From positions 138,142-202,141 of the forward strand of contig JAKBJL010000001.1 of assembly GCA_021836035.1 (NCBI GenBank): DNA of 64,000 nucleotides. Reading direction: 5' to 3'. Positions 1,872 through 63,446 of the stretch are shown here, in pieces. The notes under the pieces are model-generated. The model did no database searches, had not been told where the DNA came from, and saw nothing but the letters and a program-made list of their open reading frames with translations. Origin of the DNA: a bacterium (GTDB lineage: Bacteria > Patescibacteriota > Microgenomatia > JAMCZE01). Positions within the stretch are counted from its first letter, which is position 1, and every line of letters begins with the position of its first letter. Position numbers and translations under genes: made by a program.

Positions 1872-2636
1872 ATGTTCTTTTCCGGCCAGCCAGCCAGGAC
1901 AGAAAGCGCTCTCCAAAACCTCCGTTCCCGTCTGACAAGCGACCGGGAGCGGGATTACTTTTTAACCCACCAAAACCGCTACCGTTTTATCTTAAAAAAA
2001 ATTGCTGCTCTGGGTCTGCCTCCCGGGGCAACCGTTTTGGATATCGTCTGTTTCCCCTTGCATCTTTTTAAGATGCTGGAAGGCTGGGGCTATCGCGTCT
2101 CGGGCGTCTCCTCCGACCACGAGAAAATAAAAACGGCTAAAATTCACAGCCTGAATATTGAAATCGGGCCCTTGCCTTATCCGGATAACCATTTCGATCT
2201 AATCATTTTTGCGGAAGTGATGGAACATCTCCTTTATAATCCCGGAAATTATCTGCAGGAGATCTATCGGGTACTTAAGCCGGGCGGAACGCTATTTATC
2301 ACCACCCCGAATAGTATCAACATCAAAAACCGCCTGCTGCTCTTGGGCGGCCGCTCCTGCTACCCGCCGCTTTTTCAGCTGTTAGAATCCGAACCGGATA
2401 ATGGTTATATTTATCACCGCCGCAATCGCGAATATACCCTGTCCGAGCTGGAACAACTCCTGAAGCCGCACTTATTTAAAATTAAATCCGGGGGACATTT
2501 TAACGCCTACAGTCCCCTGCGGGAGAAATTGCATCCGAACCCCCGGGCGGTTAGAATAATAAAAGGGGTGGTTTTCCTCCCCACGGTTTTTTTCAGCTCA
2601 TTAAGAGATACCAATTTTATTCTGGCCGCCAAATGA
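1872..2636 (+). CDS. Class I SAM-dependent methyltransferase-like protein with a degenerate motif I
   Basis: Shows a Methyltransf_11-like core (DLIIFAEVMEHL...VLKPGGTLFITTPN). The glycine-rich motif I reads VLDIVCFPLHL where VLDxGCGxG is expected. Confidence 0.55.
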   Translation: MFFSGQPARTESALQNLRSRLTSDRERDYFLTHQNRYRFILKKIAALGLPPGATVLDIVCFPLHLFKMLEGWGYRVSGVSSDHEKIKTAKIHSLNIEIGPLPYPDNHFDLIIFAEVMEHLLYNPGNYLQEIYRVLKPGGTLFITTPNSINIKNRLLLLGGRSCYPPLFQLLESEPDNGYIYHRRNREYTLSELEQLLKPHLFKIKSGGHFNAYSPLREKLHPNPRAVRIIKGVVFLPTVFFSSLRDTNFILAAK

Positions 2637-3319
2637 ATCCAAAATTGTTACTGGTAGCAAACTGGAAAGCTAATTTCCCCGCAGCCTGGTTCCGGGAATT
2701 TTCCCTTCTACCTGCCCAATTTTTAAGCTACCTGGATGTGGCTATCGCCCCGCCGTATCCCCATATTTCCGACGTTCCCCAAAATTTTATCCGCTGTGCC
2801 CAAGATCTATCGGCTTTTTCGCCCGGAGCCTACACCGGAGAGGTTCCGGCGAAACTATTGGCGGACTTAGGGGTTAAATATTGTCTGGTCGGCCATTCCG
2901 AGCGCCGAAAATACCTTGGCGAAACTACGGAAGCGATAGGGAAAAAGGCTCTACAAGCCCTAGAAAATCGGATTACCCCTATTGTTTGCGCCCGAAATTT
3001 TGAGGAAATCCCCCGGCTCGCTTCGCTGCCTCAGGACGGCCCGATGGTCATGTTTGAGCCCGAAGAAGCCATCAGCTCTCACGGCGAATATCACCCCGCA
3101 ACCCCGGAAGAAGTACGGCGGACCCTGGCGGAATGGCAACGGCAGCTTGGTCCGGGCATGCGTTTTCTTTACGGTGGGAGTATAAATCCCGATAACGTTT
3201 CCCGTTATCTGTCTTCCGATTTTCGTCCGCTGCTTTCCGGCTTCGTTATCGGCCATGCTTCCCTGGAAATGCAAACCTTTTTCGCGATTCTTAAACAATG
3301 TCTTCCTACCGTCTCTTAA
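2633..3319 (+). CDS. tpiA: Triosephosphate isomerase
   Basis: N-terminal VANWKAN and the catalytic GHSERR motif are present. Length is 228 aa. Start overlaps the upstream gene (ATGA). Confidence 0.85.
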   Translation: MNPKLLLVANWKANFPAAWFREFSLLPAQFLSYLDVAIAPPYPHISDVPQNFIRCAQDLSAFSPGAYTGEVPAKLLADLGVKYCLVGHSERRKYLGETTEAIGKKALQALENRITPIVCARNFEEIPRLASLPQDGPMVMFEPEEAISSHGEYHPATPEEVRRTLAEWQRQLGPGMRFLYGGSINPDNVSRYLSSDFRPLLSGFVIGHASLEMQTFFAILKQCLPTVS

Positions 3320-4425
3320 TCACCAAAACCCGACGGCGGATCGCCAAGCACGACCGCCTCTTAAAAGCCGCTTTGTCGGCCGGTTGCTTCTTTATTCTGT
3401 TTTTCCTGGCAACCACCTTTTTCCTGCCGGCGGCCAAACTATTAAAGGAAACCGTTTTCGGAACGGTTAATCCGCTGGCGGTTGTTTTAGGCACCGGCCC
3501 GGCCTTAAAAAGCGATGAGGGAAGGACCAATATTTTACTGCTGGGTATCGGCGGAGGATCTCATGAGGGCCCGGATTTAACGGATACAATGATTATCGTT
3601 TCCCTTCCCAATAGCTCTCGGCCGCCTGTCTCTTCCGCTGCCGGAACAATTTATCTGGTCACCATCCCCCGGGACATCTACCTCGCAGACCTCAACGATA
3701 AAATTAACTTTGCTTATTCCTTCGGTCAGGAAAAAAGAAGCGGGGGCGGCTTGACCCTCTCGGAAGCCGCCGTGCGACAGGTAACCGGTTTACCGATTCA
3801 CTACGGCATCCGCGTTGACTTTACCGCTTTTGAAAAAATCATTGACCTGGTGGGCGGAGTGGACATCGAAGTGGAACGGGCTTTTGACGATTTTCAATAC
3901 CCGCTTGCCGGTAGCGAAACCGACAACTGCGGTTTTACACCGTCAGAGCTGGCTGCCCGGGAAGCCACTATGTCTCTGGAAATTGCCTACCCCTGCCGCT
4001 ATGAGCATCTGCATTTTGCCGCCGGTCTGACGCATATGAACGGCGCGACGGCTTTAAAATTCGTCCGCAGCCGGCATGCGGAGGGAGAAGAAGGTTCCGA
4101 TTTCGCCCGCTCCCGCCGCCAGCAAAAACTTATACTGGCATTCAGAAATAAATTGCTTTCCCTGCCTAATTTGCTTTCACCGCAAAAAATGCTGGAGATT
4201 TATAAAACACTCAAAAGTCATGTGGATACCGATGTCGGCAGCGGGGAAATGAATACTTTTTTACGTTTGTGGCTAAAACTTAAAGACAGCCCGGTAAAAA
4301 ACATTAATATCGATGAGAATCTTCTGGTAAACCCGCCGATTGACCAGCGGGGCTGGATTTTACTGCCGCGGGATGCCGACTTCACCGAAGTTCACGACTT
4401 TCTCCGGAAACAAATCTTTCCTTAA
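3298..4425 (+). CDS. LytR-CpsA-Psr (LCP) family cell-envelope glycopolymer transferase
   Basis: N-terminal TM anchor followed by an LCP core (NILLLGIGGG...DLTDTMIIVSLP...TIPRDIY...INFAY). Confidence 0.75.
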   Translation: MSSYRLLITKTRRRIAKHDRLLKAALSAGCFFILFFLATTFFLPAAKLLKETVFGTVNPLAVVLGTGPALKSDEGRTNILLLGIGGGSHEGPDLTDTMIIVSLPNSSRPPVSSAAGTIYLVTIPRDIYLADLNDKINFAYSFGQEKRSGGGLTLSEAAVRQVTGLPIHYGIRVDFTAFEKIIDLVGGVDIEVERAFDDFQYPLAGSETDNCGFTPSELAAREATMSLEIAYPCRYEHLHFAAGLTHMNGATALKFVRSRHAEGEEGSDFARSRRQQKLILAFRNKLLSLPNLLSPQKMLEIYKTLKSHVDTDVGSGEMNTFLRLWLKLKDSPVKNINIDENLLVNPPIDQRGWILLPRDADFTEVHDFLRKQIFP

Positions 4426-24315: not shown

Positions 24316-25611
24316 TTAAAAGATCTGTCCTCTTTTTCTGACGATTTCCCCTATCGTTTCGCGAAAATCTCTGAAACCCGGGATTCTCCCTAAATCCCGC
24401 CGCAAAACATACAGGCTTAATACCACAATTAAAGCTTCGGTTATAAAGGTAATAAAAGAAGCGGCATAAAAGGAATAGAGGGGAATAAAAACTATATTTA
24501 AAAAGACGTTGATGGCCAAGGCAACACAGGCAATTAGGAAAGAGGCCCATTGTTTTCCCAAAGCCACAATCGTGTAGCCGTTAATATGATTAAAATAGGA
24601 AACGACAATCGCCAGTGATAAAATCCTTAAGGAGCCGATCGACCCGGCAAAATCCGGTCCGGCGATAATATTAATCGCCAGGGGCGCGAAAATATAATTG
24701 GCGACGGCGACAGCCACCCCCATTATCAGCAGGATGATGAAAGATTTCCGGTAAACATCGCCGAGTTTAAATTTATCGGAGATAGCCAATTGAGAAATTA
24801 ATGGCAAAACGGAATTAGCAAAATAAGCCGCCCCCAAAACCAGGACCTCATAAACTTTATATGAAGCTCCATACAAACCTACCGCCTCCTGTCCTTTATA
24901 TAGGGAGAGAATTACCGTATCGATGCGATTGTAAATGGTAAAGACGACTAAAATTCCGCCCATGGGGATAGCTTCAATCAGTAAAAAGCGGGTTTTGGGA
25001 TGGATGAGGGAATATTTAAGCGGCAATAGTTTAAATCCCAGGAATGCGGCTACCCCGGCAGCAAAGGAATCGGAAAGAACAAAAGCTAAAATTATCATCA
25101 ATAAAGAGGTTTGGTTTTGGATTAAAAAAAGGAGGAGTGCTAAAAAAAGAGCGTTGCCGGCAATTTCGGAAAGAGCCCAGTTTTGCATTTGTAATTTGAC
25201 ATTGAAAATAATTTGAAAAGAGGTCTTTAAGGAGAGGGCGAGCAACATCAATGAGGCAACGCTGACCAAAAGTCTTATCTGTGGATCATAAGGCAAAAGG
25301 TAAATTACCAAAACGGTAATAATAGCCGCGATAAAGGCCAAGCCCAGGCGGATCACTAATACATTGCCGATTATTTCCCGAGCTAAAGCATCATTACGGC
25401 TGGCCTCCCGGACCGTAATCAGTGTCAGACCCCAGTCTGCCAACGTCCCGAACATAGTGACAAAAACCAAAACAAAAGTGTAGGTGCCGAAACCCGCCGG
25501 CCCCAAATGTCGGGTGAGAAGAATGGTAATCAAAACCCCCAAGCCGGCAGAAAAAGATTTCCCGATAATTTGGATAAGCGTATTCCAGGCAATTTTATGC
25601 GATAAGGACAT
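24316..25611 (-). CDS. Polysaccharide/oligosaccharide flippase (Wzx/MOP superfamily)
   Basis: 431 aa with about 12 TM helices. N-terminus IAWNTLIQIIGKSFSAGLGVL is typical of Wzx-type flippases. Confidence 0.65.
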   Translation of the reverse strand: MSLSHKIAWNTLIQIIGKSFSAGLGVLITILLTRHLGPAGFGTYTFVLVFVTMFGTLADWGLTLITVREASRNDALAREIIGNVLVIRLGLAFIAAIITVLVIYLLPYDPQIRLLVSVASLMLLALSLKTSFQIIFNVKLQMQNWALSEIAGNALFLALLLFLIQNQTSLLMIILAFVLSDSFAAGVAAFLGFKLLPLKYSLIHPKTRFLLIEAIPMGGILVVFTIYNRIDTVILSLYKGQEAVGLYGASYKVYEVLVLGAAYFANSVLPLISQLAISDKFKLGDVYRKSFIILLIMGVAVAVANYIFAPLAINIIAGPDFAGSIGSLRILSLAIVVSYFNHINGYTIVALGKQWASFLIACVALAINVFLNIVFIPLYSFYAASFITFITEALIVVLSLYVLRRDLGRIPGFRDFRETIGEIVRKRGQIF

Positions 25612-25619
25612 AAGCCTTG

Positions 25620-26927
25620 TTAATTATAAGTTGCTGGTTTGGCTATTACCAGGCGGGACCAGAAAAGACCAAAAGTAAAAGCCAATAGCATTTGTGTTTG
25701 TTGTAAAGTAAATAAATAGTGGTCAAAAAGACCCAGGAAGAATATTGCCAGGAAAATAATAAGCTGCGGGGAGTGAAACCGCCAGAGGCGTTTTGCGGTC
25801 AGAAACAAAATATAGAAAAAAGCCGTCATGCCAATAATTCCGGTTTCTGCCAACAAAAGAAGAAAAATATTATGGACCGGCTGCCCGATTAAATAAAAAC
25901 TATTGCCTAAAAATTGTTGATCGGCAGAAAGTATTGAAAAATTTCCCAAACCGATACCGGCAAGAGGGGAATGGTAAAAATATTTTATCGCCTCTTGATT
26001 CAGAAGTCGGCGGTTCAGAATCGTATACTTATCGGAGCTAAACAAAGCTCCAAAACGAAAGTAAAGGGTGGGTAAGAAAAAGGTAAACATGGCCAGCGCC
26101 GCAATTACCGCCGCGCCATAATTTCTTCTGAGGCCATACCGAAATACCCCCGGATGGTTAAGGATATGGAGCGCGACAATGCTGCAAACAAAGACTGCTA
26201 AAGCACTACGTGAAAGTGAGAGAAGAATAATTAAAAAAGAAATCAAAACTTCGATATAAATTAATTTCCTAAAAACTTCATTTTTAAAAACAAATTCCTG
26301 CCAGGAAAAAATAATTAATCCGCTGATTAAAAAATAGCCCGCCATTTGGTTGGGGTGGGAAAAAAAGGAATAAGGGCGGAAATATAAATAGCCGTTGATT
26401 ACTGCCGTCGCAATTCCGGGGGTAGCGATATTAAAACTTCTTTCCCCCAACCAATACCAAAAACCACCGAGAGCTGACTGCCGGTATATTTGACCGAGAG
26501 CGGAAATTAAAATAACTATCGACTGGATAAAAAAAATAGCGATCAGCGGCTTAATATTTTTAATGTTTAAAATTTTTCGACTAATAATAAAAATAAAAGT
26601 TAGTTCTAAAACTTTCAGCCATTTATATAAAGAAACCTGGGGCGATCGGGAAGAATAAATATTTAATCCCGCTGTCGCGAAAAATATCAGGACGGCGATT
26701 AGGTTGGTAATCTTTATTTTTCCCGAACTCTTTACGGTAAATAGACAAACAATAATTAAGGCGGCCGCCAGGATATCGGTAAGGTAAACAGTGGGGGAAA
26801 GGTAATCAATTCGTAATCCCCGGACGTAAGCAAAGGGTGGCCAGAAATGCATACCCAGCTGGGTCGGTAAAAATAAAAACCATAAATAAAAAAGGGGAAT
26901 AATTAGTTTTAGGAAATTGACTGCCAC
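25620..26927 (-). CDS. O-antigen ligase / polymerase-like (Wzy_C family) membrane protein
   Basis: Polytopic, 435 aa, with a large loop between later helices. Adjacent to the flippase gene. Confidence 0.5.
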   Translation of the reverse strand: MAVNFLKLIIPLFYLWFLFLPTQLGMHFWPPFAYVRGLRIDYLSPTVYLTDILAAALIIVCLFTVKSSGKIKITNLIAVLIFFATAGLNIYSSRSPQVSLYKWLKVLELTFIFIISRKILNIKNIKPLIAIFFIQSIVILISALGQIYRQSALGGFWYWLGERSFNIATPGIATAVINGYLYFRPYSFFSHPNQMAGYFLISGLIIFSWQEFVFKNEVFRKLIYIEVLISFLIILLSLSRSALAVFVCSIVALHILNHPGVFRYGLRRNYGAAVIAALAMFTFFLPTLYFRFGALFSSDKYTILNRRLLNQEAIKYFYHSPLAGIGLGNFSILSADQQFLGNSFYLIGQPVHNIFLLLLAETGIIGMTAFFYILFLTAKRLWRFHSPQLIIFLAIFFLGLFDHYLFTLQQTQMLLAFTFGLFWSRLVIAKPATYN

Positions 26928-60852: not shown

Positions 60853-60856
60853 AAGG

Positions 60857-60943
60857 CGGAAGGTACAGGATTCGAACCTGTGTGAGCCTATTCGGCTCAA
60901 GGGGTTAGCAACCCCTCGCTTTGGGCCACTCAGCCAACCTTCC
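60857..60943 (-). tRNA. tRNA-Ser (anticodon GCU)
   Basis: Manual fold: acceptor GGAAGGT/ACCTTCC, a Ser-type D-arm, anticodon loop TTGCTAA, a long variable arm (TGAGCCGAATAGGCTCAC), T-arm ACAGG-TTCGAAT-CCTGT, discriminator G. 87 nt. Confidence 0.8.
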
Positions 60944-60959
60944 AGACCCCAAGATTATA

Positions 60960-61646
60960 TCATCTAGCTTTTATCAGTTCTCCAATAAAGCATTCGTATA
61001 TCCCTAATAATTTCAATTGGACTTTGTAATCACCATACTTTAAAGTGCAGGTTCCCTTATAATCTTCTCGATGTTTTCCTCCATGAGGGGTGGTAATTGT
61101 AGGCTTGATGAAAACCTCCGTTGGAAGCTTAAGTAAATTTGACCAATAACTTTTTAGGGAATCAAAATCATGATTCGAATGGATTTGCAGATGAACCGAA
61201 AATTTTTCCTCATTTAGGTAAAACGATCTCCTCAGAAGATTTATAAAGGTTGCAACAAGGAAAGGGTTACTATTGGAAAAAGCTACTCCGCGATTGTTTG
61301 GATATTTCGATCCCTCACAACCATATAATAAACCCGCAAGTAACTTGGCCTTTGGCGAGGATAGAGAACAAACTTTGGGAACTATCCCAATCTCTGACTC
61401 TTTGATCTCACCACACTGTTTCCTATGTCGCCCAATTAAATAATCTCTAGATGTTCCGACCAATTCAAGATTCCAATTGCCAATGGTAGTATCGGGAATA
61501 TTAAATCTTTTACCAAGCTCAGAAAACGAGAGTTTTTCCTTTATTCTTGTTTCTTTGATTTGATTAACCAAGCTGTCGCTATATCTTTTTAGTGGCTTAG
61601 AATTCATAATGGTATATAAACCATTATTATATGACAAAGATATCAT
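60960..61646 (-). mobile_element. Free-standing LAGLIDADG homing endonuclease gene (228 aa), AT-rich relative to its surroundings
   Basis: Single LAGLIDADG motif (KAKLLAGLLYGCEGSK) plus the second signature FLVATFINLLR. GC content is visibly lower (about 35%) than the neighbours (about 50%). Wedged with 2-17 nt spacers between comFC and tRNA-Ser. Confidence 0.7.
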
Positions 61647-61649
61647 GTC

Positions 61650-62315
61650 AACGGGCTAAAGTAAGCGCGAAGACTTTCGGAAATCCCACATGTTTTAAGA
61701 CTGACCCGCAGCTTTTTAGGGTCGTCCCTGTTGTCCAAATGCCATCGACAAGAATGAGCGTATAACGGTTAGCGGAAAGCGTAAAGTTGAAACTGGGATT
61801 AATAGCGAAAATACCGGCCACATTTTTTGCCGCTCCTTTTCGGAAAGGCCCCGCTGTGATTCGGTCAGTGTGGTTCCGTTGAGTAAATTTTCCGCGACCG
61901 GAATACTTAGTTGTTTACTTAATTCCCGCGCCAAACTCGTTGACTGATTAAATCCGCGCTGTTTTTCCTTCCACCAATGCAGCGGTACCGGAATAAGAAG
62001 AAGATTGTCAAACTGTCTTTTTAAAATTGTGATCTACGGCTGAACAGCGCTTTGCTCCAATAAAATTTTTATCAGCCCTGCGGAAGCCGCGAAAGTGAAC
62101 GGCCGGAATTTTAAACGGCTGATAGCGTTTTTGATCGGTTGCTGATAAATAAATCCCGATAACAATCCGTCGAGGGAATATTTTGTCTGACAGCGGAAAT
62201 GGGTCCGGCCATGAATCGCGGGATATTCACAAACCGGGCAAACCCGGGGATTAACCGAATAATTTTCCCGGCAATCCTGACAAAAATAAACCCCGGTTTT
62301 CCACGCCCCAAACAC
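61650..62315 (-). pseudogene. comFC: comFC-like (ComF amidophosphoribosyltransferase family) gene disrupted by an in-frame TAG and a frameshift
   Basis: N-terminal zinc finger (CQDCRENY...CPVCEYP). A TAG stop at 62034-62036 (minus strand), then the in-frame IPVPLHWWKEKQRGFNQS ComF motif. A later +1 shift within an A6 run is needed to reach the PRTase motif LVDGIWTTGTTL...ALTLAR. Confidence 0.6.
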
Positions 62316-62379
62316 CCCAGGAGAAACAGAAAATTTAATCTTCTTCCCCCAAAAGGATCGACTGTTATAATCATATTAT

Positions 62380-62817
62380 ATGCGCGTAATTAATCGCACC
62401 GCCAACTATAATTATGACATTTTGGAAAAATTAGAAGCCGGGATTGATTTGTTGGGGCCGGAGGTAAAATCCGTGCGCGCCGGCCAAGTTTCTTTAAACG
62501 AAGCTTTTGTGCACATTCGGGACGGCCAGGCGTATTTGGTTAACGCCCACATTCACCCTTACCAAAATTCCCAGGAATCGATCCTTCCTACCCGGGCGCG
62601 CCGGTTGCTTTTCCATAAAAAAGAAATCATAAGTTTAGCAAGTAAAGCCGCCACAGAAGGTTTGACCCTTATACCCCTGGCGCTGTATAATAAGGGCAAC
62701 ATCTTTAAGGTTGAGGTGGGACTAGGCAAGGGGAAAAAGAAGTGGGATAAGCGGGAAGCCTTAAAGAAAAAAGCCCAGGAAAGAGAAATCGATATCGCAT
62801 TACGAGGAAAAGAGTAA
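62380..62817 (+). CDS. smpB: SsrA-binding protein SmpB
   Basis: NYDILEKLEAGIDLLGPEVKSVRAGQVSL...LLFHKKEI and a basic C-terminal tail. Confidence 0.85.
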   Translation: MRVINRTANYNYDILEKLEAGIDLLGPEVKSVRAGQVSLNEAFVHIRDGQAYLVNAHIHPYQNSQESILPTRARRLLFHKKEIISLASKAATEGLTLIPLALYNKGNIFKVEVGLGKGKKKWDKREALKKKAQEREIDIALRGKE

Positions 62818-62842: not shown

Positions 62843-63201
62843 GTTTGGGGATGTACGAATCGACGGGAGAGCACTTTGAAAACGGCAAGCCGAAGAAGAA
62901 ACCTACTTCGTAAAAGATGGTTTCAAAACTTAAGTGCTGATAATCATCAGTACGCGTACGCTTACGCTTAAAAACGTAGACTAACGCTGTTCCCTAAATC
63001 TTTTTCCGGTGAGATTTTCGGAGCATAAACAAAGCCGGGATGCTGAAGACAAAGTTTGATTCTCTTTATCTTTATAAGCCGAACAATCACGCAATAATTT
63101 TCTTGTCGGCCCGACCAATTATTGCAAGAGTAAGAACCGAATAAGCTTGTAGATGTTTAGAAGTCACTTTCTCGCACGGGAGCTCACCCTCCCCATCTCC
63201 A
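62843..63201 (+). ncRNA. ssrA: tmRNA (ssrA); 3' end approximate
   Basis: 5' end GGGGATGTACGAATCGACGGGAG matches the conserved tmRNA 5' region. The 3' acceptor CATCTCC-A pairs with GGGGATG and gives a G3:U70 pair and discriminator A. Candidate tag frame GCT GAT AAT CAT CAG TAC GCG TAC GCT TAC GCT TAA (ADNHQYAYAYA). About 359 nt, directly downstream of smpB. Confidence 0.55.
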
Positions 63202-63446
63202 CATCGCGGAAACCCAGTTCAGAAACCCTCTGGATTAGCTGTATCGAATAAGACAAACCAGGAGATCCAAACCCATTGCCGACAAATAGCCAGCAACCTA
63301 ATCTCTGTCGGGGTTTCTAACACGAACATCCTCCACCTGTATCCCCCGAAAACAATCGGTGTAGTCAATAATCCGACCGCAATTAGGAATAGACCGGAAG
63401 CACCGATTGATTTGACCAAGGAAACTAAATATACTATTCATAGTTC

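Follow-up and report, generated by a model that had tools for sequence, protein, structure and literature searches.

We analyzed a 64,000-nt stretch of DNA ("the window") from a Patescibacteria bacterium of the Microgenomatia (GenBank assembly GCA_021836035.1, contig JAKBJL010000001.1, positions 138,142 to 202,141). On the minus strand of the window, an AT-rich open reading frame (ORF; 60960..61607, 215 amino acids plus stop) lies between a broken comFC gene and tRNA-Ser(GCU), as seen with the ORF list, ARAGORN, and tblastn. The ORF is a genuine, functional, free-standing LAGLIDADG-type gene that is fused to a helix-turn-helix (HTH) domain; the cleavage activity and the target site of its protein are predicted. 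The best explanation, in which we have moderate confidence, is that the ORF is a long-resident and autoregulated gene of the homing-endonuclease type that targets tRNA-gene DNA. A preliminary description of this locus had recognized the placement and the kind of gene. It had also proposed that the gene was a recently acquired selfish element. A selfish origin of the homing type is plausible, given the patchy occupancy of the site and its occupation by another endonuclease gene in a relative, but the evidence points to a long-resident gene rather than to a newcomer. The preliminary description also missed that adjacency to tRNA genes defines the gene's family.

A gene family defined by its tRNA neighbor

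Database searches identified 133 homologs of about 210 amino acids, nearly all of them unannotated. Where the source is named, it is almost always a metagenome-assembled genome from the Patescibacteria, and a few records carry other phylum labels. Some members of the family are labeled as XRE-family regulators. Another member (P0037) is labeled "ADP-dependent glucokinase/phosphofructokinase" in NCBI's nr, which is an evident mis-annotation.

Species-representative genomes supplied 45 loci for comparison, and exact matches to proteins led us to several others. In 44 of 48 distinct loci, from different Patescibacteria, a co-oriented tRNA-Ser starts -52 to +68 nt from the stop codon of the ORF. 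The tRNA is mostly tRNA-Ser(GCU), with UGA or ACU anticodons in some clades. In the window, tRNA-Ser(GCU) (60855..60943, minus strand; called by ARAGORN, and 59.1 bits to Rfam's RF00005) is on the same strand as the ORF and 16 nt beyond its stop codon, rather than the 17 nt given earlier. In 17 loci, the ORF has no stop codon before the tRNA and runs into it. The four exceptions are two loci in which tRNA-Ser(GCU) ends 0-6 nt ahead of the ORF's start codon, one truncated copy, and the most distant copy (28% identity), which is beside tRNA-Ala(GGC). By a rough estimate, the chance that a random gene would have such a tRNA neighbor is well under 1%. Adjacency to a tRNA gene is a defining feature of this family and is not incidental.

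In several clades of the family, tRNA-Ser genes flank the ORF closely on both sides, at distances of 0-6 nt and 3-20 nt. This implies that tRNA processing would be needed to release the mRNA.

Besides tRNA-Ser(GCU), many of the Microgenomates-type loci encode another class II tRNA, whose anticodon is ACU (loop TT-ACT-AA). Examples are at L010 5776-5861, L013 5628-5715, L020 5632-5719, L024 5640-5725, L043 5437-5519, L044 5437-5528, L046 5431-5513, L047 4506-4591, and L048 5624-5712, and there are others. This tRNA is often directly 3' of the family's ORF. A tRNA-Ser with A34 is unusual in bacteria.

The protein combines an HTH with a LAGLIDADG-like domain

The ORF's protein has an N-terminal HTH, a long linker helix, and a single C-terminal LAGLIDADG-like domain. 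The AlphaFold2 model has a predicted local distance difference test score (pLDDT) of 91.7. The HTH (residues ~11-43; 61479..61577, minus strand) comprises helices 11-24, 28-35, and 39-43 of the model. It resembles the HTH domains of transposases, resolvases, and XRE regulators: it matches a transcription regulator in PHROG (4.5e-5), and 18-24 of 43 homologs have matches to HTH_23, HTH_3, or HTH_28.

The LAGLIDADG-like domain (residues ~84-214; 60966..61358, minus strand) contains the motif helix LLAGLLYGCEG, which ends with E98-G99 (codons at 61316..61311; we number residues in the 215-residue protein). The single LAGLIDADG motif that was originally reported, LLAGLLYGCEGSK, is thus present. 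Across the 43 aligned family members, E98 and G99 are invariant, and they are retained in both halves of tandem-duplicated relatives. The surrounding block, L-x-x-(I/L)-L-Y-(W/G)-C-E-G-S-K-Y-P, is nearly invariant, and the full set of invariant positions is Y95, E98, G99, Y102, P103, Q141, H143, K168, R180, and C187. In LAGLIDADG enzymes, the motif helix bears the catalytic aspartate or glutamate at its C-terminal end. The conserved Glu-Gly of this family is at exactly that end. In other words, the protein has a LAGLIDADG-type helix that terminates in a conserved acidic residue followed by glycine. It also has the alpha/beta core fold of the LAGLIDADG superfamily, and its modeled strand order includes an additional helix.

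Similarity to known LAGLIDADG proteins is weak. Neither Pfam's LAGLIDADG_1/2/3 nor NCBIfam had any model that matched the protein above its threshold, and phmmer against the PDB found nothing for the nuclease domain. Matches to LAGLIDADG_3 below the cut-off were found at the motif helix in 8 of 43 homologs (best E = 6.7e-4); for instance, residues 81-122 of one homolog align to positions 6-48 of the profile. The family profile (A1) matched only HTH proteins in the PDB. Foldseek with the structure model gave no significant match in the PDB and only weak matches in BFVD, yet these were enriched for LAGLIDADG proteins of phages. In hhalign, the family profile was not significantly similar to an approximate sequence of I-CreI or to the LAGLIDADG protein from locus L095 (see below). 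A structure model of P0168, a tandem-duplicated relative, was built from a six-sequence alignment and had a pLDDT of 60, so we discarded it.

Pairs of family members have ratios of nonsynonymous to synonymous substitution rates (dN/dS) of 0.07-0.12. The ORF is under strong purifying selection and is a real, maintained gene.

The protein had no match in PADLOC, and its relatives matched only at the HTH, so we rejected the idea that it is part of an anti-phage defense system. Similarly, IMG/VR contains no relatives of the protein, and we rejected an origin from phage.

Distant relatives abut other tRNAs

An exhaustive profile search identified 4,483 representatives (clusters at 50% identity) with E <= 1e-3, of which 2,304 had E <= 1e-10. 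Patescibacteria carry members of this superfamily, as does at least one actinomycete. All nine of the distant members that we looked up abut a tRNA: tRNA-Trp(CCA) in three cases, tRNA-Arg(GCG) in two, tRNA-Gln(UUG) in one, and tRNA-Ala(GGC) in three. Scanning the DNA of the collected loci with a hidden Markov model revealed four more members. These also abut tRNAs (one precedes tRNA-Arg(GCG) and three precede tRNA-Ser(GGA)), for a total of 13 out of 13.

In the tRNA-Ala(GGC) clade, the ORF and the tRNA are on opposite strands, and their 3' ends meet. This convergent arrangement argues that the link between the gene and the tRNA is at the level of DNA, not RNA. More broadly, because each clade has its own tRNA and either orientation occurs, site-specific insertion is a better fit than an RNA-level partnership.

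The actinomycete copy is from Actinomadura parmotrematis (L106 3001-4599; WP_220163469.1). This tandem-duplicated protein of 532 amino acids is encoded next to glmU and prs, and 80 nt separate its gene from the tRNA-Gln(UUG) that follows. It and the other high-GC relatives (P0168, P0182, P0187, P0220, and P0240) are tandem duplications, arranged as HTH-domain-HTH-domain or as HTH-domain-domain, and both halves contain the motif YW.EG.K. There are also paralogs of about 135 amino acids that have the LAGLIDADG-like domain without the HTH (L019 2839-3252, minus strand; L047 1191-1601, minus strand; L050 3358-3825, plus strand). These lie directly upstream of tRNA-Ser(GGA), and the same genomes hold a full-length copy at tRNA-Ser(GCU).

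The site is occupied patchily, and by another endonuclease gene in one relative

We also examined 51 metagenomic loci that were picked only by the similarity of their SmpB proteins. They contain 17 distinct tRNA-Ser(GCU) genes with sufficient upstream sequence, and just one of these (L089) has the ORF. In the closest relatives whose sequence covers the site, L054 and L061 (SmpB 77% and 72% identical to the window's), tRNA-Ser(GCU) is beside comFC and there is no ORF. L087, in which comFC is followed by 43 nt and then by tRNA-Ser(GCU), has the window's arrangement without the ORF. Thus, relatives are polymorphic for the presence or absence of the ORF at one conserved site, as is characteristic of homing endonuclease genes that act as mobile elements.

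In L095, the slot is filled by an unrelated gene (2358-3382, plus strand). It encodes a canonical LAGLIDADG_3 protein with two motifs (46.7 bits) that resembles the endonucleases of inteins. It is located between tRNA-Ser(UGA) and tRNA-Ser(GCU), next to comFC, and it reads into tRNA-Ser(GCU). It is accompanied by its own HTH ORF, which is now out of frame. The presence of two distinct LAGLIDADG lineages at one intergenic site is the pattern expected of homing endonucleases.

A conserved palindrome overlaps the promoter

Upstream of the ORF is a promoter-like site, TTGACA-17-AATAAT (61623..61651, minus strand), which matches the consensus at 11 of 12 positions and whose -35 hexamer overlaps the stop codon of comFC. 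Our scan of the region found 4 such sites, with 3.7 expected; this is not significant alone, and it is the position of the site that supports it. The preliminary description gave the gene 228 codons. That ORF exists as the maximal frame (60960..61646, minus strand), but its ATG at 61646 falls within the promoter-like site and is probably unused. The gene call in the public assembly (P0001) starts at 61607, and the homologs all align to M14 of the longer frame. The ATG at 61607, which gives 215 amino acids, is most likely the true start. The gap between the stop codon of comFC and the ORF is then 40 nt (or 1 nt for the longer form), and not the 3 nt reported before.

An inverted-repeat scan identified a near-perfect palindrome of 22 bp, with half-sites ATAATGGTTTA and TATACCATTAT (61606..61627, minus strand), that overlaps both the -10 element and the start codon. 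Related palindromes of the form GGTTT-NN-AAACC, or a GGGTTTT block in the promoter spacer, are found at ORF promoters in most clades. In clade B, the palindromic element is upstream of the tRNA that precedes the ORF, in the promoter of a tRNA-ORF-tRNA unit. Within the 5,035 nt that precede the family's ORFs, we counted 9 occurrences of the exact sequence GTTTNNAAAC, versus 0.26 expected (~35-fold enrichment). None of the ORF-less loci that we inspected has the GTTTNNAAAC palindrome ahead of tRNA-Ser, so it is not simply the sequence of the empty site, and we rejected the idea that it is the target sequence at empty sites.

By analogy to I-TevI, the palindrome is a candidate operator at which a dimer of the HTH protein would regulate its own expression. 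The palindromes do not covary with the anticodon stem of the resident tRNA. We speculate that the operator might mimic an anticodon arm.

The tRNA appears to have its own promoter. An extended -10-like element, TGATATAAT (60954..60962, minus strand), lies 10 nt before the 5' end of tRNA-Ser(GCU), and its TGA is the stop codon of the ORF. This element is probably the tRNA's promoter. About 15 other loci have TGnTATAAT equally far from the tRNA, and in the ORF-less loci L061 and L054 a TATAAT box occupies the corresponding position.

In some Parcubacteria-type loci (L022/L023, L028, L029, and L037), a sequence that resembles the 5' half of tRNA-Ser precedes the ORF's promoter, 40-110 nt upstream of the ORF. 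It consists of an acceptor strand and a D arm, and then a palindromic motif that replaces the anticodon arm. Neither ARAGORN nor Rfam calls a tRNA at these sequences, which may be relics of a disrupted upstream tRNA. We considered an intron or a split tRNA at these loci and rejected the idea: Rfam identifies no partial tRNA there, and a complete tRNA follows the ORF.

How the gene might spread and be regulated

We propose that it is the DNA of the tRNA gene that would specify where the ORF lands. A homodimer of the protein would recognize and cut a site in or beside ORF-less tRNA-Ser loci, and an ORF-bearing copy would serve as the repair template, which would place the gene against the tRNA. 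Within the superfamily, every clade would be tied to a single tRNA gene. In the window, the ORF would be driven by its own promoter and would probably be repressed by its own protein, via the palindrome over the -10 element and the start codon, as in I-TevI; tRNA-Ser(GCU) would retain its extended -10 promoter. The window's copy would be an old resident of its lineage rather than a recent arrival. ComF functions in DNA uptake, and its loss would hamper uptake. Because comFC is broken, present-day spread of the ORF out of this host, or into it, is unlikely. This explanation draws on the linkage to tRNAs, the convergent arrangement in the tRNA-Ala clade, the patchy distribution, the second occupant in L095, the low dN/dS, the conserved palindrome, and the precedents of SegB and I-TevI (described below).

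A broader proposal, which we advance tentatively as possible rather than probable, is that the ORF belongs to an undescribed and very large superfamily (~2,300 clusters) of free-standing HTH-LAGLIDADG endonucleases. These would use tRNA genes as landing sites, with one tRNA for each clade (Ser-GCU/UGA/ACU/GGA, Trp-CCA, Arg-GCG, Gln-UUG, or Ala-GGC). Their mRNAs would be excised by tRNA processing ("tRNA punctuation"), and they would be autoregulated via a palindromic operator that resembles the anticodon arm of tRNA-Ser minus one base. In the open-access papers that we searched, we found no description of a tRNA-linked HTH-LAGLIDADG family.

Probably an old resident

Homologs from L003 (55% identity) and L089 (58% identity) are in the same arrangement of smpB, comFC, ORF, and tRNA-Ser(GCU) as in the window, which argues against a recent arrival, as does the dN/dS of about 0.1. 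Several results weigh against the explanation that we prefer. First, the ORF's divergence tracks that of SmpB: identities to the window are 58% for the ORF and 53% for SmpB in L089, 55% and 47% in L003, 45% and 46% in L004, 44% and 45% in L018, and 42% and 43% in L019. At these five points, which are not a full reconciliation, the ORF evolves no faster than a housekeeping protein. Second, the nearest homolog among 5.8 billion proteins is the one that is 58% identical, so there is no sign of a recent transfer, and the family's tree has long branches and clade-specific gene arrangements. We found no evidence for horizontal transfer, either as incongruent phylogeny or as near-identical copies in other hosts, within a comparison that falls short of a full reconciliation. 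The lack of recent transfer and the SmpB-like divergence look like what would be expected of a vertically inherited host gene. Also, a selfish endonuclease that does not move should decay, yet the ORF is as conserved as SmpB. Third, no degenerate remnants of the ORF were found at the empty sites in the SmpB-anchored sample, and our repeat scan found no terminal inverted or direct repeats and no target duplications around the ORF. (Since the ORF lacks flanking terminal repeats, we also rejected the idea of a transposon-like element.) Finally, cleavage by the protein and its target site are predicted.

The main rival is that the ORF encodes a domesticated regulator similar to WhiA. According to this explanation, a dimer of the HTH-LAGLIDADG protein would bind the palindrome and, besides its own promoter, would control the neighboring tRNA gene or operon, and it would no longer be a mobile nuclease. 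This explanation stays alive because the ORF's conservation matches that of SmpB and no recent transfers are visible. It would account for the conserved operator-like palindrome in or next to ORF promoters (in clade B, within the promoter of the tRNA-ORF-tRNA unit), and it is consistent with the strong purifying selection and the clade-specific arrangements. Nevertheless, we think that it is unlikely. The acidic residue is invariant in the family, including both halves of the tandem forms, whereas WhiA-type proteins lack it. The gene is dispensable and rare (about 1 in 17 tRNA-Ser(GCU) loci) and is missing from the closest relatives with the site covered. The tRNA differs from clade to clade, and either orientation occurs; in L095, the slot is taken by a canonical LAGLIDADG gene of the homing type; and a GC content below the host's, as seen in 50 of 51 loci, is what genes that are selfish or weakly expressed typically show.

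Another alternative is the one originally suggested: a recently acquired and possibly mobile selfish element that landed by chance between comFC and the tRNA. The compositional anomaly is real, as the preliminary description stated. The GC content of the ORF is 0.357, versus 0.480±0.037 across the 52 long ORFs of the window, and its GC content at third codon positions (GC3) is 0.319, versus 0.508±0.055. Its GC content is the lowest of the 52, about 3.3 standard deviations below the mean. (The next most AT-rich is a Wzy-type O-antigen ligase, at 24316-26927 on the minus strand, with a GC content of 0.388, which is beside a polysaccharide flippase gene.) But low GC content is a trait of the whole family. 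In 50 of 51 loci, the ORF has a lower GC content than its neighbors; its deficit in GC3 averages 0.108 (Wilcoxon p = 5.5e-9), and the GC3 of the ORF scales with that of the host (r = 0.77, slope 0.62). This points to long residence and an intrinsic AT bias, and it makes the low GC content uninformative about recent arrival.

The lack of the ORF in the closest sampled relatives with the site covered would also fit a recent acquisition, as would the slightly better scores of the comFC remnant against comFC from ORF-bearing loci. The remnant's scores are 108 bits for L003 and 101 bits for L089, versus 80 and 71 bits for the closer relatives L061 and L054, which could reflect flanking DNA that was imported with the ORF. 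In L054 and L061, the orientation of comFC is reversed. On the other hand, the database holds no homolog above 58% identity, the slot is also filled in L003 and L089 with divergence no greater than that of SmpB, and the adjacency to tRNAs is systematic. Given the role of ComF, the broken comFC would hamper the host's uptake of DNA. The preliminary description had named uniform composition together with syntenic orthologs in relatives as the evidence that would overturn it: syntenic homologs exist (L003 and L089), but the composition is not uniform. We consider a recent acquisition to be improbable.

The types of tRNA-Ser(GCU) sequence do not follow the relatedness of SmpB. The window's tRNA and that of L061 (359-447) are of one type. 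The tRNA of L054 (4065-4151), whose SmpB is 77% identical to the window's, is of another type, which it shares with the distant L089 (1139-1225), L004, and L010. The tRNA gene may have undergone exchange or conversion.

Lastly, an RNA-level role, as a maturase-like, processing, or stabilizing factor for a co-transcribed tRNA-Ser, might be suggested by the existence of LAGLIDADG proteins that are RNA maturases and by the co-oriented and often overlapping ORF and tRNA, which imply a shared transcript in many loci, but it is very unlikely, given that Rfam finds no intron at the locus, that the tRNA has its own promoter in the window and in about 15 other loci, that the tRNA of the Ala clade is on the opposite strand, and that most related genomes lack the gene.

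The surrounding locus

The comFC pseudogene (approximately 61648..62330, minus strand) was delineated using tblastn with the ComFC proteins of L003 and L004, and it contains fragments of Pfam's DZR_2 and Pribosyltran. Relative to the intact ComFC of relatives, it has an in-frame TAG at 62034-62036 and a frameshift near 61830, and the LVDD of its phosphoribosyltransferase motif has become LVDG. Judging from these lesions, it is a true pseudogene, in agreement with the preliminary description. comFC also adjoins tRNA-Ser(GCU) in relatives without the ORF, which shows that the adjacency of comFC and the ORF is ordinary local synteny. In L003 and L089, the ORF adjoins an intact comFC, so the breakage of comFC is unrelated to the ORF.

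Beyond comFC, and divergent from the strand of comFC, the ORF, and the tRNA, are smpB (62380-62817, plus strand) and then tmRNA (62847-63204, plus strand). On the other side, beyond tRNA-Ser(GCU), is an acylphosphatase gene (60852-60580, minus strand). A scan with Rfam identified neither an intron nor any other RNA family in the vicinity of the ORF, and the ORF is not in an intein or rRNA context. Together with the promoter-like site, this indicates that the ORF is free-standing, as had been described.

Implications

If these proteins are active, then they are a large and untapped set of compact nucleases (~210 amino acids) that are specific for the highly conserved DNA of tRNA genes, which would be of interest for engineering meganucleases. 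They would establish the 5' flank of tRNA genes as a new niche for selfish genes in the genomes of cells, as opposed to the 3' ends (integrases) or the introns of anticodon loops. They would also help to account for the persistence of homing-type genes in Patescibacteria, whose genomes are tiny. As regards annotation, a family that is labeled as "hypothetical" or "XRE-family regulator" gains a fold, a rule for its genomic context, and a testable function. As for the window, the ORF should be read as an old resident and not as a marker of recent horizontal transfer.

Comparison to known systems

Single-motif, homodimeric homing endonucleases such as I-CreI, and LAGLIDADG_3-type enzymes such as I-DmoI and I-Tsp061I, are natural points of comparison. 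Unlike them, the ORF has no intron or intein as a host, and its family has an N-terminal HTH fused on. The motif of the ORF is LLYGCEGSKYP instead of their LAGLIDADG, and the protein falls below the thresholds of all curated profiles. Compared to these enzymes, the model's strand order has an extra helix, and nuclease activity is only predicted.

WhiA is a bacterial transcription factor that descends from LAGLIDADG endonucleases. Its single chain contains a pair of degenerate LAGLIDADG domains, which have lost the catalytic acidic residues, as well as a C-terminal HTH, and it is nearly universal in its clades. The ORF's family has one domain with an invariant glutamate, an N-terminal HTH, and a patchy distribution. 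The protein does not match Pfam's model for WhiA and lacks the defining features of that family.

In bacteria of the candidate phyla radiation (CPR), LAGLIDADG genes are found within insertion sequences of rRNA genes (Tsurumaki et al. 2024, PMC11270868). Those genes are from the same phylum and the same broad class of enzymes as the ORF and differ in being inside rRNA insertions; the paper does not mention tRNA-linked or free-standing copies. Similarly, a survey of tRNA introns in Patescibacteria reported HNH genes in the introns of tRNA-Asn, which are not members of the ORF's family (PMC13011429).

SegB of phage T4 is a free-standing homing endonuclease that is encoded between tRNA genes and cuts a tRNA intergenic region (PMC2988022). 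The ORF is likewise a free-standing endonuclease-type gene amid tRNA genes, and several clades of its family are similarly located between two tRNA-Ser genes. SegB differs in having the GIY-YIG fold and in being part of a phage genome, and it is an isolated case, whereas the ORF belongs to a superfamily whose clades are each specific to a tRNA. I-TevI acts as a repressor of its own promoter, through an operator that resembles its homing site (PMC2988022). I-TevI is a monomeric, intron-encoded GIY-YIG enzyme, unlike the ORF's protein; but the ORF's promoter is overlapped by a palindrome that its protein would bind, and this suggests a comparable form of autoregulation.
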